Source of the DNA: Actinobacteria bacterium UBA7524
GTDB taxonomy: Bacteria; Actinomycetota; Coriobacteriia; Anaerosomatales; UBA912
Direction of reading: 5' to 3'
Assembly (NCBI GenBank): GCA_002478275.1
Contig: DLMY01000050.1
Coordinates: 1-56,107 of the forward strand
Length of the DNA stretch: 56,107 nucleotides
Made by a program: the position numbers. Shown in pieces: positions 27,525 through 33,500 of this stretch. How positions within the stretch are numbered: the stretch's first letter is position 1; every line of letters begins with the position of its first letter.

Positions 27525-30500
27525 TCAGCATCCTTCCTTGTGTCGCGCAGGTTTCTCGCGCGTTTCCTATAGCTCGTACCCGGACTCGGCATGTTCGGAC
27601 AGGTCGCAGCCGGTCTCCTCGGCATCTTCGTCGATGCGCAGGCCGATGACGAGGTCGATCAGCTTGAGGATGATGAAGCTGGCGACGAACGAGAACACGA
27701 TGGTCAAGACGATGCCGATCACCTGCTCGAGGATGAGGCCGCCGCGGCCGAGATCGGCGAGCGTCTCCGTGAGGTCGGCGTTGACGAGCGTGCTCGCGAA
27801 CACACCGGTCAGAATCGCGCCGAAGGTGCCGCCCACGCCGTGGATGCCCACGACGTCGAGTGCGTCATCGTAGTGGAACTTCTCTTTGAAGGTGACGCCG
27901 ATGAAGCAGCCTGCGCCTACGACGAATCCGATCGCGATGCCTGCCATCGGGGTCACGAATCCCGCGGCTGGCGTGATGCCCACAAGGCCGGCGACCGCAC
28001 CGGAGGCCGCGCCGAGTGTGGTGGGCTTGCCGCGCTTGATCCACTCGACAGCGAGCCAGCCGAGCATGCCGGAGGCGGCCGCGAGGTGAGTGGCGAGAAA
28101 CGCGGTGCCGGCGAGCTCGTTGGCTGCGAGCGCGGAGCCGGCGTTGAAGCCGAACCAGCCGAACCAGAGCATGCCCGCTCCGAGCACGGTCATCGGCATG
28201 TTGTGCGGCGTGAACGCGGTCGTGCCGTAGCCCTTGCGCCGTCCGAGCGCGATCGCGCCGGCGAGCGCTGCAGCAGCAGAGGCGATGTGCACGACGGTAC
28301 CGCCTGCGAAGTCGAGGGCGCCTCTCTGCTGTAGGAAGCCGCCGCCCCAGACCATGTGCGCCATGGGTGCGTAGACGATGATCGACCACAGCGTGATGAA
28401 GATCGCGTACGCGGAAAACTTCATGCGCTCGGCGAAGGCGCCCGAGATCAGCGCCGCCGTGATGACGGCGAACATGCCCTGGAACGCGATGAAGACAGGC
28501 AATGGGATCGTGCCAGACATCTCACCGAGGGTGCCTGCGAGTCCGGCGTACTCGAAGCTTCCCATGAACGCGCCGAGCGCCCAGTCGGTCGAACCGAACG
28601 CTATCGTGTAGCCCACGAGCGCCCAGACGACCGAGATGATGCCCATCGCGAAGAACGAGTGCATGATCGTCGAGAGCACGTTCTTCGAGCGCACCAGGCC
28701 CCCGTAGAACAGCGCGAGCCCTGGCACCATGAACAGCACGAGCGCCGAGGACATCAGTATGAACGCGGTATCTCCGTAGTCGATTCCCATCTGCCTCTCC
28801 GTTTCCGCTCCCTTCGCAAAGACCCCGGATCGCCGAGGAGCCCGTGCGACATTGCCTGCGTGTTTCGTAGAGGTTACGGGCCGCGTGTTTCGGTCGTGTT
28901 TCTGACTGGCTTGAGGTGCGAATTCGCGGGACGCCGCTCGTGAAACAGGAGCCGGACGGTGTGTCCGGCTCCTGTTGTTTCAGGGACGGGCCACTCGCTG
29001 CCGAGCGAGGTTTCCTCGGCCAGTGAAAGGTTCTAGTTGGTTGGCACGATCTTGAGAGTGTCAGTGCCAGAGAAGGCACCACCGGCCCAGAAGAAGCCAG
29101 TGACCGTGCCCATGGTCTGACCGGGGAGGTATGTGCCGTCGACGTCTTCGATATGGACGATCAGGTCGTCGTATCCGTCGAAGTTGTAGTCCTCGATCGA
29201 GGCTTGAGCGGTCATGCTCTTGCCCTTGAACCGCACTGCCATGCCGTCCAGGGCTACCGTCGCGGGATTGATGGTCGTCACGTCGAACGTGGCCGAGCCC
29301 AGGATCGCCACAGGGATGACGCCTTTGCCGTTGTTGTTGACGGCGTTCGGATCGCTCATGGGCCTGATGTCTACCGTTACCTGGGCGATGTACTCGTCGA
29401 GCGAGAAATCGTCCAGGCAGTAGTCGTTGCCGCTGGCGGCCAGTGTCGGCGAAACGAGCTTCAGTGTCGCGGTCGTGGCGCTTCCGGCGGTCCAGTGGTA
29501 GTCGTACTGGACCCATTGGCCGACCGCTCCGTCTGCGACATATGTGTCCACTTTGACGTCATTGATATAGAGATCCAGCGTCGGAGGCGCTTCACCGATG
29601 CTCTTGGCACCCCAGAACGAGAATGAATACACGCGTCCCGGTAGCACGTTCACTGTCGGGGCGGTCCATACGACCTTGTTCGGCGTGGTCGAGCCGTTGA
29701 CGATCATCATATTGCCCACGGCCGGGTCGTCGGGTGTGGTGTGGTCTCCGTGAGGTCCGTACACCCAGTGCGCGTGGTAGTCGTACGGGTCCTTGCCCAG
29801 AGCGTACGTTCCCTCACCCCACAGGGTGGAGTGCCCGGTCGCGGCCACATACGTGTACTCCGAACTGAACCCGACGCCGTTGCCGAGTTCGAAGTCGCCG
29901 TTGGTCAGCAATTCGACCGCGAAGGCCTGTGTGCTTATTGCGAGTATCAGTACTACTGCGAGTATGAAGACGAGCGATAGTCTCTTCATCGTTCAGCATC
30001 CGTTTCTCTCGAACGAGCAGTACACCGGGACGGTCGAGAACGGAGAGTCACCTCACTTCACCAGCCCCTGCGGCACCCATCCGGCCGCACGAATAAAGAC
30101 CGACCCCGGTTCGAGGTCGGTCTCACCATTGGCTCCCTGCCGACTCAGGTGACCGTATGTTCGTGTCGGCAGATCGATACCCCCCGTGGCGACAACTCGG
30201 CGCGTGGCGCCGGTTGTTCACCGACTGAGATGTTACCCAAACCCCCGGCCGGATTCACTAGCCGAGTCGACCTCGTATCGCGCACGCGACTTGAGCCGTC
30301 TGTGGGCGTGGTAATCGGGCACACGCGCACGACTGTCGGCATGCCGTGGGGCGGTTCTGTGCATTGTGTGTGCGTGCGGGTCAAGGCATGCATGGTGCTA
30401 CCGGGAGGGGATCGCCGCTATGCCGGCGTACCGGCCGTCTCCTTTTGGAGGTGTTTAGAATTGCATAGGATCAGAATCGCCATCGTGATCGTGGCGACGG

Positions 30501-33500
30501 CGCTCGCGTGGGGTGCCCTGTCGGGTGCGGCCTACGCGAGGACCGTCTACACGGGCGTGTGCACATCGTGCCACAGAGGGGTCGATGTGCCCGTCAGCGC
30601 CTCGCTGGTTTCGAACTCAGGTTCGGCCAGCACCTTCTCGTACAGTGCTCCGACGGCGGATGCAGTCGCGGTGTTCGCGGGTTCCGTCAAGCAGGTGGGC
30701 ATGACCGGTGCGACAGGCCAGTTCACCGTTGCCAACGGGCAGATATACACCCTCTACGCGGTCGCGGGCCCGGGCACGAACACCGGCATCGGGCAGACAA
30801 CGGTCACCGCTGTGAATCCGCCGCCCACTTCTGAACCACCAGCCCCGGTGGACGAACGCTTCACGTACATCGCCGGGAACAACCGCTTCGACACCGCTAT
30901 CCAGGCATCCAGGCACACGTTTCCCACCGGTGCTCCGGCCGTGGTGATCGCCACGGGCCGCAACTGGCCAGATGCGCTTGGAGGAGGCGCACTCGCTGCG
31001 GCCGTCGGAGGCCCCGTCCTGCTCACGGAGCCGGCAGCGCTGCCCTCGTCGGTGTCTGATGAGATAGTCCGGCTCGGAGCCAGGAAGGCCTATGTACTCG
31101 GCGGTACCTCGGCAGTCAGTACCGGGGTCGAGCTGTCGCTTGCCGGGCTCCTCGGCAGTTCGAACGTGACAAGGATCGCCGGCCGTTCGAGATATCAGAC
31201 CGCCGAGGAGATCGCACGTGCGGTGACCCAGCGCACTGCAGGGGCGCCGGAGTTCACAGGAGGCGCATTCCTGGCGACAGGCGTCAACTTCCCCGATGCG
31301 CTTGCCGCGACGCCGCTCTCCGTCGCGACTCGCAGGCCGATCTTCCTGGTCGGGCCGCAGGGATTGGCTCCGTCAACGTGGGACGCCATGCAGAGTTGCG
31401 GTGTCGATGAAGTGGTCGTGCTTGGCGGTACCGCCGCCGTCTCGACCGCCGTTGAGAACGAACTTGCCGGTAGATTCGGTGCGTCAGAGGTGCACCGGCT
31501 TGCCGGCGCGAACCGATATGCTACCGCGGTGGATGTCGCGACGTACGGCGTGAGTCGCTTCGGTCTGTCATGGGACGGCCTTGCCATCGCGACAGGCACC
31601 GGGTTTCCCGATGCGCTTGCCGGTGGTGTCATGCAAGGCCTTGCCGACTCCGTGATGCTGCTGACCACCGGTACCGAGCTACACAGTGCTACCAGAGCCT
31701 GTATCGAGACGCACAGAGCAGCGATCGACAATGTGAGCTTCCTTGGCGGCATGAGTGCCGTGAGCGAGGCTGTGCGCTCGCAGGTAGGCGCCGCGCTCGG
31801 CTCCGGTACGCCAGACCCGGATCCGGATGCGGACCCAGACCCGGACATAGAGCCGGAGCCCGATCCCAATGCACCACATGCCGCGTTGCGCTGGTCGAAC
31901 TACCCTGCAAACTGCCTGAGTTGTCACCCCGGCGAGTTCGGTGATGCCTACCAGGGCGTGCATTACCAGTGGCAGGGGCAGGCGCCTGAGAACGTCAACC
32001 AGCCCGGCATCTTGCAGGGCAAACTGACGAACGCCATCAACAGCTACTGTGTCAGTGTGGGCGACAACTGGCAGATCTGCGGCAAGTGTCACGCAGGCCG
32101 AGGTGCGGTTCCGGTCTGGACGCAGACGCCCACCAGAGAGCAACTGCTCAATGTGGACTGCCTTGTCTGTCACAACGACGATTACTCGAAGGTCCGCACG
32201 CGTCTTGCCGACGGGTCGCTCGGGCCGAGCACGACCGACACGGCCCTTCTTGATTCATATGTGCGGACCATCAAGGCCCCCACCCGGGCCAGCTGCCTGT
32301 CGTGCCACGCGTACGCGGGCGGTGGTGACGCCGTCAAGCGTGGTGACCTGTCGTGGGCGACCGCGAACACGACTGACCGCAACTACGACGTGCACATGGC
32401 GACCACGGGCGGCGACCTGTCGTGCCAGTCGTGTCACGCTTGGTCCAAACACAAGGTCACCGGTCGTGGATCCGACCTGCGAGTCACCGACAATCCGGGC
32501 GAGGTGACCTGTTCGACGTCTACCTGTCATCCGGGTGACAACGTGGCCGGGCACTCCTCGGCCGTTCAGAAGCATGTTGCGCGCGTCGCGTGTCAGACAT
32601 GTCACATCCCGGCGTACGGGCGCAACGCTGCGGATTCGGCCGCGACCGAGGCCACCGAGATCGACCGCAACTGGCTGGTCACGAATGTCTCGGGGGCGAA
32701 GCCGTGGCATCCCGGCAGCACCAAGGCGAACAACGTCACGCCTGCTTACAGGTGGTGGAACGGTACGAACGACAACATGCTGCTCCGCGATGCGAATCTG
32801 ACGCTGGGGACGGACGGGACATATGCGACCTCCAAGCCCGTGGGCACGGTGAATGGGAGCGGTACCAAGCTCTATCCGTTCAAGTACAAGACCGCCACGC
32901 AGCCGATGCGTGCAGCTAACCGCATGCTTGTGGGGATCGATACGCTTGACTACATGATCGGGTCCGGTAACCCGTACACGGCGACCGGCATCGGACTCAC
33001 GAAGATGGGATTCGCCTCGACCGACGCGGTCGACTGGGTCAAGACGAGCACGTACCAAGCGCTCAATCACTCGGTCCCGCCGGCGACCGATGCGCTGCAG
33101 TGTGCGGATTGCCACGGCTCGACGACGCGTATGAATCTCAAGGCGGACCTGGGATACGCACTCAAGGGCCCGGAGTCCACGGTGTGCGTCCAGTGCCACA
33201 ACGCTAAGAGCCCGATGACTTTCGCCGCTGTGCACTCCAGGCATGCCCGCTACGAATGCTCGTTCTGCCACACTTTCTCGCGGCCTGAACGGGGGTTGCG
33301 TACGACCCCATAGTGCAGTGCAGGCATCCCTATACGCCAGTGCCGATGAAGGCCCGGGGACGGGCCTTCATCGATATTCGTCAACCAGTACCTGTCCGGC
33401 CTGCTGATATAATCAGCGCCAGGGCCGCCTGCGTGTCCTGCGGCGGTATCGCGAGAAGTGAACGCTCAAGTGGGAGGTGCCGCAGGTGACGTATTCGACG

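Follow-up and report, generated by a model that had tools for sequence, protein, structure and literature searches.

The window, by which we mean the whole stretch of 56,107 nucleotides analysed here, is a contig of Actinobacteria bacterium UBA7524. It carries on its forward strand an uninterrupted open frame (30149..33313) in which three CWB2 cell-wall-binding repeats and a multihaem cytochrome are joined in one protein. We read the gene as 30461..33313, from a TTG start to the stop codon TAG at 33311-33313, which gives 950 residues. The database entry (P0002) begins at GTG 30302 and has 1003 residues, and this start was also adopted in the genome-wide survey's note. It is probably 53 codons early. 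A GGAGG ribosome-binding site read from the sequence (30447..30451) lies 9 nt upstream of the TTG, and the N-termini of the orthologues P0005-P0008 line up with TTG 30461 in the alignment, where the 53 additional residues have no counterpart. Thus, TTG 30461 is most likely the start. Beyond the stop codon by 32 nt there is a terminator-like hairpin (33345..33372), with a perfect 12-bp stem, a 4-nt loop and a poor T tract. Its minimum free energy is -29.2 kcal/mol (z -5.4; 0 of 200 shuffles equally good), and a scan for consensus terminators did not call it. The gene has no conserved neighbours, and its context in the window differs from that at the related locus L020. Given these differing contexts and the strong hairpin after the stop, the neighbourhood names neither an electron donor nor a pathway.

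The protein begins with what we judge by inspection to be a Sec-type signal peptide (residues 1-26, MHRIRIAIVIVATALAWGALSGAAYA, followed by R; 30461..30538), and its AXA site is conserved at the same place in the aligned orthologues. The hydrophobic signal-like segment reported in the survey is the only one in the 950-residue protein, since Kyte-Doolittle windows of 19 residues reach 1.6 or more only when they start at residues 3-8. Seven residues past the predicted cleavage site is a lone haem-binding motif, CTSCH (C34, C37, H38; 30560..30574), in which C, S, C and H do not vary among the nine fused sequences (alignment A3). This lone-haem N-terminal module is also present in P0123 and P0124. 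It is followed by an FN3/Ig-like beta-sandwich (residues ~46-116; 30596..30808), which is seen in AlphaFold blocks at pLDDT 85-90 and has a pLDDT of 78.6 when modelled as a separate domain. Structure searches with the sandwich gave generic FN3/Ig matches only (best Z 9.0), and Pfam assigned it to no family, with nothing below E 0.09.

Three CWB2 repeats occupy residues ~134-447 (30860..31801; three Pfam PF04122 matches, E 8.2e-47). The genome scan places them at 30869-31132, 31172-31456 and 31496-31774, and the best CW_binding_2 stretch is residues 137-224 in the frame read from TTG 30461. Foldseek matches of this segment include Cwp6 (5j72, E 5e-24), Cwp8 (5j6q) and SlpA (7acy_B), with E values from 5e-24 to 1e-16, and the model superimposes on SlpA with a TMt of 0.72 and an rmsd of 2.7 Å. 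The repeats are therefore predicted to form the canonical triad of these C. difficile proteins, and through it the protein would be retained in the wall or on it, a broader placement than the outside of the wall given in the survey. Within this genome, the nearest paralogous triads share 49-51% identity with it. Genome-wide, PF04122 matches 70 repeats, which lie in 25 open frames distributed over 14 contigs. Because two adjacent frames on one contig (C16) are probably a single gene, this amounts to about 24 genes, in agreement with the 24 counted before. CWB2 also stands as the main recognisable surface-display system of this genome; no SLH domain was found in the genome, and the present protein has no LPXTG-like sortase motif.

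An acidic Pro/Asp-rich linker of 25 residues (448-472, SGTPDPDPDADPDPDIEPEPDPNAP; 31802..31876; pI 4.05), with pLDDT below 50 at residues 449-463, connects the triad to the haem module. The core of this module (residues 473-896; 31877..33148) is related to octahaem tetrathionate reductase (OTR). It matches Shewanella OTR (1SP3) by phmmer with an E value of 2.3e-47 across 420 residues and by Foldseek with an E value of 1.2e-22 (TMt 0.63), and it matches positions 21-438 of the 440 in the TIGR04315 model (E 3.2e-76). Pfam reports Cytochrome_cB at 756-887 (E 1.3e-25) and Cytochrome_C7 at 870-938 in the 950-residue frame. The second haem of OTR is reported to be catalytic and Lys-ligated (PMC11024163). 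Here, K521 (codon 32021..32023) aligns with Lys56 of OTR (1SP3), the ligand of haem 2; in alignment A2, Q519-G520-K521 is invariant in 62 of 62 sequences, as is the second haem motif of the module. OTR is described as reducing tetrathionate, nitrite and hydroxylamine (PMC4484225, PMC11024163), and its physiological role has been called "cryptic" (PMC11024163). The survey had regarded the protein as an electron-transfer cytochrome. We revise this reading, because the module groups with a catalytic cytochrome and Pfam finds no MtrC/MtrF domain in the protein. We read it as neither an MtrC-like wire nor a generic electron-transfer or decahaem conduit; it is kin to OTR and keeps the catalytic haem 2 with its Lys. 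The TIGR04315 score is 257 bits against a curated cut-off of 375, so the protein falls outside the curated OTR subfamily and its substrate may differ. In the structural model, which was built without haems, pLDDT is 44-60 at residues 610-730.

By script, CXXCH motifs are found at 34, 485, 540, 567, 612, 655, 711, 881, 909 and 933. The positions listed earlier for these motifs (87 to 986) and for the Pfam domains are reproduced exactly after a shift of 53 residues. The earlier total of ten haems, one N-terminal and nine C-terminal, is probably one too low. A CX4CH motif, CSTSTCH (684-690; 32510..32530), sits where the alignment to 1SP3 places the CXXCH of OTR haem 6. Its C684, C689 and H690 are invariant in the 62 sequences of A2, and a plain CXXCH stands there in the relatives P0015, P0017 and L105-L107. 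The octahaem core motifs are thus those at 485, 540, 567, 612, 655, 684-690, 711 and 881. They are followed by a dihaem extension (residues 897-950, motifs 909 and 933; 33149..33310), covered in part by the Cytochrome_C7 match, that has no counterpart in 1SP3 or in the TIGR04315 model. A2 shows no variation at C909, C912, H913, H925, C933, C936 and H937 of this extension, nor at any of the ten C-terminal haem sites, in its 62 sequences. There are probably 11 haem sites in all, one N-terminal and ten C-terminal. Ten conserved His outside the motifs (473, 501, 645, 664, 698, 705, 750, 870, 925 and 928) would suffice as distal ligands for nine transfer haems.

The fusion is rare but recurrent among orthologues. 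As the survey had stated, PF04122 is found in six of the 120 best homologues listed for the cytochrome part, namely the self match and P0004-P0008, at 76-87% identity. Of the 80 best genome loci, one gives full-length coverage; of 401 genomes sampled from the class, 4 have the fusion, and the four other genomes of the same family all lack it. The same architecture is seen in P0004-P0008, L020 and L101-L103. In the tree the fused proteins group in a clade of their own with eight terminals (SH-like support 0.984), the sister of which is a five-member clade of proteins of ~630 residues; two of these five (P0009 and P0011) have an MG2 domain in pre-computed Pfam annotation. Judging from these sequences, we regard the fusion as real and selected. 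In Coriobacteriia and other Actinomycetota there are relatives without the fusion (~610-700 residues; for example P0009-P0013, L104-L109 and L111), which share the signal peptide and the decahaem OTR-like module at 53-72% identity. Most of them differ in having an N-terminal MG2 or Big_7 Ig-like domain instead, and they have no N-terminal haem motif and no CWB2 (0 of 8 scanned).

The protein agrees with OTR (Shewanella oneidensis SO_4144) in the order of eight haem sites, in the haem-2 Lys with its neighbouring Asn and Cys, and in fold. However, OTR, of ~440 residues, is free in the periplasm of a diderm host, whereas the module here is preceded in its chain by the signal peptide, the FN3 module with its single haem, the three CWB2 repeats and the linker, has CX4CH in place of CXXCH at haem 6, and ends with two additional haems. 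With C. difficile Cwp6 (5J72), Cwp8 (5J6Q) and the high-molecular-weight subunit of SlpA (7ACY) it shares three tandem PF04122 repeats, the same predicted triad, and a functional passenger domain and Sec signal alongside it. The differences are that the host is an actinobacterium (Coriobacteriia) and not a clostridium, that the triad is mid-chain between two haem-bearing parts, and that a multihaem redox enzyme serves as passenger. In agreement with the survey, we found no description in the literature of a multihaem cytochrome with CWB2; the one paper found that pairs cell-wall binding with a multihaem cytochrome deals with ANME archaea. In those archaea, MHC-A and MHC-B reportedly join a multihaem cytochrome to a cell-envelope module, with a single haem motif in the S-layer-domain linker that recalls the lone N-terminal haem near CWB2 (PMC9012536). 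They differ in having a DUF1608-type S-layer domain, a C-terminal membrane helix and very many haems without an OTR-type catalytic core; the resemblance is one of analogy only, with no homology. OcwA of Thermincola potens (6I5B) and OmhA of Carboxydothermus ferrireducens (6QVM) are described as catalytic-type multihaem proteins of the NrfA/HAO/OTR superfamily at a monoderm surface (PMC6703420, PMC9250108), and OTR as an outlier to their clade (PMC9250108). The anchoring of OcwA is stated to be undetermined (PMC7720022), whereas the present protein has an explicit wall-binding module in its chain.

The host is an uncultured Coriobacteriia MAG, Anaerosomatales-like, in 60 contigs and 83% complete; the best named matches of its enolase are Coriobacteriia and Anaerosomatales MAGs at ~85% identity. 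The genome has 20 frames with at least three CXXCH, the richest having 38, 21 and 18, and apart from the present protein none of its cytochromes carries CWB2. System II maturation genes are present, with five matches each for ResB and CcsA adjoining cytochrome clusters. Potential donors are present as well, and two multihaem proteins have NapC/NirT-type N-termini. Omp85 was not found in the genome. Cultured Anaerosomatales are reported to be Gram-positive in wall type, with 17-18 multihaem cytochromes (PMC9686372). Quinones were reportedly not detected in Anaerosoma (PMC9686372), and therefore a quinol-linked electron supply is uncertain. At 83% completeness, the genome yielded neither NrfA nor another tetrathionate- or nitrite-related enzyme, and its only two molybdopterin enzymes both have an in-frame TGA.

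We suggest, with a probability of about 0.65, that the protein is a Sec-exported c-type cytochrome held by CWB2 in or on a monoderm wall and bearing on its linker a catalytic multihaem module of the OTR lineage. It is most likely a wall-retained extracytoplasmic reductase. The unfolded chain would leave the cytoplasm by export, up to 11 haems would be attached by System II (ResB/CcsA), and signal peptidase would cleave after AYA. The CWB2 triad would then bind a secondary wall polymer non-covalently, so that an otherwise soluble enzyme would not be lost to the medium. Other multihaem cytochromes would donate electrons, probably through the two extra C-terminal haems beside OTR haem 8, and a bis-His haem chain would carry them on to haem 2 with its Lys ligand, the site at which some small oxidised substrate would be reduced. 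Homology points to tetrathionate, nitrite or hydroxylamine as this substrate; Fe(III) or electron shuttles are further candidates by analogy with OcwA, which is reported to reduce iron oxides, shuttles, nitrite and hydroxylamine (PMC6703420, PMC9250108).

This last option borders on an unlikely alternative, the survey's own reading carried to its strong form. In it the protein would chiefly be an electron conduit, or the terminal reductase, for acceptors that are extracellular and insoluble, for example Fe(III) minerals or partner cells; CWB2 would display it on the outer face of the wall, and the OTR site would be incidental. The two readings overlap, as OcwA does both. Multihaem cytochromes abound in the genome, as in Fe(III)-reducing Anaerosomatales; OcwA is described as reducing iron oxides at the surface of a Gram-positive cell (PMC6703420, PMC9250108); the OTR relative MmcA is reported to carry electrons to Fe3+ and AQDS (PMC11024163); and the long acidic linker could allow the haem module to reach outward. 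However, the present protein, unlike MmcA, retains the catalytic second haem motif and Lys, and their invariance argues for selection on catalysis. It also has no sequence match to OcwA or OmhA at E <= 1, and neither is among the Foldseek matches listed. The fusion, moreover, is too sparsely distributed to be a general part of the electron-export machinery of the group.

Less probable still is a protective or scavenging role, in which the wall-held enzyme would intercept nitrite, hydroxylamine or reactive sulfur species on their way to the membrane rather than serve respiration. OTR is reported to be efficient on nitrite and hydroxylamine in vitro (PMC4484225), detoxification has been proposed as a role of OcwA (PMC6703420), the gene is solitary without respiratory partner genes, and NrfA was not found. 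Yet the incomplete genome tempers that absence, and ten to eleven haems with a dihaem extension would be costly for detoxification alone; the present data do not separate this role from a respiratory one. We give very little credence to a chimeric assembly, a two-gene read-through or a decaying pseudogene. The MAG is fragmented, the relative in G175 has the gene in pieces with an internal TGA, and one NCBI MAG files it as two partial proteins (P0122 and P0003, the longest contig of both being 13426 bases). Nevertheless, the frame here is unbroken, all haem sites are intact, the junction, linker and N-terminal module are conserved, and the same order of parts recurs in independent assemblies (P0004-P0008, L020, L102, L103). 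The wall-retained reductase that we favour represents a rare and testable answer to how Gram-positive-type bacteria might keep respiratory cytochromes in the wall.

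The gene for the CWB2-multihaem fusion occupies a frame that is open throughout 30149..33313 on the + strand, and we read its product as, most likely, a wall-retained extracytoplasmic reductase. Pfam finds in it three CW_binding_2 domains (E 8.2e-47), Cytochrome_cB and Cytochrome_C7. The genome-wide survey's note had placed the start at GTG 30302, giving 1003 residues. We prefer TTG 30461 and number from it, because a GGAGG lies 9 nt 5' of this codon and alignment puts the predicted starts of the orthologues at the same place, and the 53 extra residues of the longer call have no counterpart in them. 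From TTG 30461 the protein has 950 residues, with a predicted mature form of ~96 kDa. Its translation opens with MHRIRIAIVIVATALAWGALSGAAYA, then RT. A basic n-region, a hydrophobic core and an AYA (AXA) site can be recognized by eye and are conserved in the orthologues; a putative Sec signal peptide would be cleaved at AYA. This is the sole hydrophobic stretch of the protein, with no second segment, and no LPXTG-like motif was found in it.

The three PF04122 stretches score 158 bits against a cut-off of 24.9, and the repeats (residues ~134-447) have pLDDT values mostly of 77-96. In Foldseek searches with the predicted model, the CWB2 part superposes on the C. difficile proteins Cwp6 (5j72), Cwp8 (5j6q), the high-molecular-weight subunit of SlpA (7acy_B) and related entries, with E values between 5e-24 and 1e-16; for 7acy_B the TMt is 0.72 and the rmsd 2.7 A. 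The repeats are predicted to form a pseudo-trimeric triad. Since the closest triads within the same genome are 49-51% identical to it in sequence, the module was probably recruited from the lineage's own repertoire. In that genome, 70 matches to the CWB2 repeat fall within 25 open frames, or ~24 genes, in agreement with the 24 counted by the survey; no SLH domain or Omp85 was found in it at 83% completeness. An acidic Pro/Asp linker of 25 residues (pI 4.05) joins the triad to the haem module.

In a sequence search of the Protein Data Bank, residues 470-950 have one strong match, 1SP3, the octahaem tetrathionate reductase (OTR) of Shewanella oneidensis (E 2.3e-47 over ~420 residues), whose eight motifs are matched in order by seven CXXCH and one CX4CH. 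The alignment pairs OTR Lys56 with K521, in the motif QGK, and the adjacent N527 and C530 are also matched. The NCBIfam OTR model TIGR04315 is matched from position 21 to 438 of 440 at E 3.2e-76, with 257.1 bits against a curated cut-off of 375. The haem module is thus, as judged by sequence, an OTR relative outside the curated subfamily. The whole-protein model, which is middling in the haem-rich stretches, matches 1sp3 in Foldseek at E 1.2e-22 (TMt 0.63, rmsd 7.9 A, 473 columns). In an alignment of the cytochrome part from 62 relatives, K521 is invariant in 62/62 sequences, and there is little or no variation at C530 or at any Cys or His of ten haem sites. According to the available text of one study (PMC11024163), all OTRs have eight haem motifs, of which the second haem is catalytic and is ligated by a conserved Lys, and the conduit protein MmcA has lost both this second motif and the Lys ligand. 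Unlike MmcA, the fusion protein keeps both catalytic features.

The MtrC/MtrF domain II/IV (PF22113), a feature of surface decahaem conduits of the MtrC/OmcA type, has no match in the fusion protein at E <= 0.01; it matches nine other multihaem frames of the genome. OcwA (6I5B) and OmhA (6QVM) are absent from the PDB sequence matches at E <= 1 and from the Foldseek matches listed. A distant superfamily link is described in the available text of PMC9250108, where OmhA is said to be isolated from the S-layer and nothing beyond. An SLH domain in OmhA was considered and dropped; the word SLH is absent from Gavrilov et al. 2021. Because the catalytic haem and its Lys are kept, with no MtrC/MtrF domain and neither OcwA nor OmhA among the matches listed, the haem module is, from these comparisons, best described as a catalytic OTR-type cytochrome and not an MtrC-like wire.

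The survey's note had ten haems. All of its CXXCH positions are recovered after adding 53 to the TTG-based numbering; its total would probably fall short by one CX4CH site. The position of the sixth CXXCH of OTR is taken by CSTSTCH, in which C684, C689 and H690 are invariant among the 62 sequences. Ordinary CXXCH stands there in the relatives P0015, P0017 and L105-L107, and such alternation would be the pattern expected of a real haem site with a variable loop. Maturation systems reportedly accept motifs whose cysteines are further apart than the usual two residues (PMC7096707, available text). Residues 897-950 add two further invariant CXXCH, together with H925 and H928, that are missing from 1SP3 and TIGR04315. 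Candidate haem sites therefore number 11, consisting of the N-terminal CTSCH, the eight of OTR type and these two. The C-terminal module has ten conserved histidines outside the motifs, which would suffice as distal ligands of nine transfer haems, the pairing being putative.

The N-terminal module (residues 27-135, window 30539-30865) is a lone CXXCH followed by an FN3/Ig-like sandwich. C34, S36, C37 and H38 are invariant in all nine fused sequences aligned, and no conserved His or Met was found inside the module of these nine as a distal ligand. The same module heads two unrelated secreted proteins, P0123 and P0124, at 53-56% identity; both are without CWB2 and without other haem motifs. In every sequence with the module, fused or not, the first Cys lies 7 residues past the predicted AXA site. 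Pfam assigns no family to it, nothing being better than E 0.09, and residues 27-135 gave no usable match in the ESM Atlas. Its fold matches generic FN3/Ig domains, the best in VIA-align being an FN3 domain of CD45 at Z 9.0. The best Foldseek match, at E 0.01, is to SoxYZ; we do not take the SoxY/Z matches to be meaningful. BLASTP against the unfused relative P0009 gave chance matches around the CXXCH alone, and from sequence the Ig domains at the N-termini of the fused and unfused kinds appear not detectably related. Cytochrome f is a precedent for haem ligation by the mature N-terminus; structural support for such ligation here was not found, and we regard it as speculation.

We suggest the following sequence of events for a wall-retained reductase. 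The protein would be exported, receive its haems through System II and lose its signal peptide, and the CWB2 triad would then bind a wall polymer. With the appended C-terminal dihaem as the way in, electrons would arrive near haem 8 and reduce the substrate at haem 2, the Lys-ligated one. For the Shewanella OTR, the available text of PMC4484225 names a small periplasmic cytochrome as the electron donor and reports a patch of positive charge near haem VIII. By homology, the substrate would be tetrathionate, nitrite or hydroxylamine; Fe(III) and shuttles may be allowed as well, by analogy with OcwA as presented in the available text of PMC6703420.

The survey's note had instead taken the protein for an electron-transfer cytochrome displayed on CWB2, a conduit reading. 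The fusion itself stands. OTR kinship, the retention of K521 and the absence of PF22113 speak against a wire, and a catalytic site so strictly conserved argues against a conduit, which we consider unlikely. In a bolder reading, a chain of cytochromes would span the Gram-positive wall, and the protein would be its end station, fixed in the wall; the archaeal counterparts would be the S-layer cytochrome fusions of ANME. The triad would set its depth in the wall. The N-terminal haem on the FN3 module, a monohaem module not described before and shared with the secreted proteins P0123 and P0124, would be a relay or docking haem on the wall-proximal side. With its OTR-type site, the cell could respire tetrathionate or other oxyanions, and perhaps Fe(III), beyond the membrane. 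We give this end-station reading a probability of roughly one in five.

A search with the cytochrome part gave 2189 matches among 7999 scored candidates, of which the best 120 were examined. PF04122 occurs in six of these 120, the protein itself and the fused orthologues P0004-P0008 (76-87% identity), as the survey had also found. The same part order is seen independently in these five metagenome proteins, in locus L020 of the MAG 'Actinomycetes bacterium LH_M22' (72% identity over residues 1-949) and in loci L101-L103 from three species-representative genomes of the window's order, all three with CWB2 x3; L101 is probably the same record as L020, the Pfam scores being identical. With this recurrence on record, we consider an assembly artefact very unlikely as the source of the fusion. 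Among 585 related loci in the genome collection, full-length coverage was found in one of the best 80. An OTR-like gene (E <= 1e-30) is present in 13 of 401 sampled genomes of the class, all 13 in the window's order, and four of the 13, the window's genome included, have the fused form. None of the four other genomes of the window's own family has any match, and the gene of the relative G175 is in pieces. The fusion is limited to a few uncultured lineages.

Eight unfused relatives were scanned; CWB2 is absent from all of them, an MG2-type Ig domain takes its place in six, and one ends in a C-terminal CarboxypepD_reg + DUF5648 tail. In a midpoint-rooted FastTree tree of the cytochrome part (62 sequences, all rows kept), eight fused sequences form an exclusive clade (SH-like 0.984). 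Its sister has five members of ~630 aa (SH-like 1.0), two of them with MG2 in the Pfam column of the homologue listing. The tree agrees with a single domain replacement at the origin of the fused clade. As a side observation, the OTR-like variant with the C-terminal CarboxypepD_reg + DUF5648 tail and no N-terminal Ig domain is seen in locus L110 781-3117 (-) of genome G229 and in P0028, P0030, P0032 and P0040; the tail may be an alternative tether for the enzyme. Separately, one Coriobacteriia MAG at NCBI has the orthologous fused gene split into two partial proteins, P0122 (385 aa) and P0003 (561 aa), for both of which the longest contig is given as 13426 bases. Its C-terminal part goes by the name 'chitobiase/beta-hexosaminidase C-terminal domain-containing protein', a misleading label for what is a multihaem cytochrome.

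Upstream of the fusion gene, the opposite strand encodes an ammonium transporter and a protein of 318 aa that matches CBM_4_9 weakly. The next gene downstream (33477-38408, +) encodes a 1643-aa protein with many RCC1 repeats, a cadherin-like/Big_9 domain and C-terminal CWB2 x3, and Mfd follows. A third CWB2 protein in the window combines DUF1565 with CWB2 x3 (8574-10922, -). The stop codon is followed by a perfect 12-bp hairpin (-29.2 kcal/mol, z -5.4) that the terminator scan left uncalled; the consensus promoter scan gave 0 sites. At L020 the neighbours are PP2C, FHA and Ser/Thr kinase genes upstream and B12-binding and GGDEF genes downstream, with no neighbourhood conserved between the window and that locus. 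Because the neighbours differ and the hairpin lies 3' of the stop, the fusion gene seems to stand alone, and its context names no partner. Elsewhere in the window, ~12380-27097 is a probable integrated mobile/defence island adjoining tRNA-Ser(cga) at 25348-25440, where GC dips to 0.58-0.60. It encodes a primase-polymerase-like protein, Mrr, a phage-type integrase (18725-19966), a DndB-like protein, an AbiEi/AbiEii pair and two Dam-type methylases with an AlwI-type endonuclease.

The host genome (1.81 Mb, 60 contigs, 62.8% GC, 83% complete) has 20 frames with at least 3 CXXCH, with a maximum of 38 in one frame; the other 19 have no CWB2 at E <= 1e-4. Among the sequencing runs listed as containing the stretch there is no RNA run; one DNA run contains it and may be its source, and another contains 5% of the words sampled from it. 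The window's enolase is ~85% identical to enolases of Coriobacteriia and Anaerosomatales MAGs. ResB and CcsA-type genes, with five matches each, lie beside cytochrome clusters, of which that on contig C30 includes a Rex-like regulator and NHL-repeat proteins. A NapC/NirT-type domain heads two multihaem proteins, which are candidate membrane electron donors. Of partner enzymes for sulfur or nitrogen oxyanions, no NrfA was found and just two molybdopterin oxidoreductases (C23:9196-10911 (-) and C9:959-2959 (+)), though at 83% completeness others may lie in the missing part. The two oxidoreductases each have one in-frame TGA, which would fit selenocysteine enzymes, e.g. formate dehydrogenases. 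Multihaem clusters lie at C30:3500-23400 (L113), C46:238-6168, C24:31139-34363 and C9:42895-45096, with frames of 38, 21, 18 and 14 CXXCH and adjoining ResB/CcsA pairs, a Rex-like regulator, and NHL-repeat and TPR proteins; they resemble those described for Parvivirga hydrogeniphila. At C9:9255-17930 (L112 756-9431), a gene for a 1595-aa BNR/Y_Y_Y + CWB2 x3 protein is followed directly, after ~260 bp, by a cytochrome gene with 13 CXXCH. This pair could be a wall anchor and a cytochrome as neighbours instead of fused. Cultured Anaerosomatales are described, in the available text of PMC9686372, as having a Gram-positive wall type, respiring Fe(III), sulfur or thiosulfate and encoding 17-18 multihaems, with quinones not detected in Anaerosoma; the words S-layer, cell wall binding, tetrathionate and octaheme are absent from it.

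As in the survey, no paper joining multiheme cytochromes with CWB2 was found in the literature searched, which is short of most subscription journals. There, the only match to 'cell wall binding' with 'multiheme cytochrome' concerns archaea, and a search for multiheme fusions with SLH or S-layer domains in Gram-positives gave related ideas alone. Since S-layer-domain cytochromes of ANME archaea (PMC9012536, available text) and an adhesin-like cytochrome fusion of Carboxydocella (PMC6085454) are on record, fusing an envelope module to a cytochrome is already known in principle. What appears new here is that, in an actinobacterium, a CWB2 triad carries an enzyme of OTR type. The positioning of respiratory cytochromes in and beyond thick Gram-positive walls is an acknowledged gap; for OcwA, a 2020 review states that anchoring and arrangement at the surface 'are still to be determined' (PMC7720022). 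In the fusion protein the anchor is written into the polypeptide, and CWB2 is a structurally well-understood module, so the idea is directly testable with recombinant pieces. The small monohaem FN3 module is described by no family. Of practical interest, the protein offers a natural model for attaching multihaem enzymes to Gram-positive surfaces in bioelectrochemical strains. A lineage whose physiological role is still called cryptic, that of OTR, has here been recruited to the actinobacterial cell envelope. If the end-station reading is true, CWB2 would provide a general and transplantable means of installing redox enzymes in the walls of Gram-positive bacteria.
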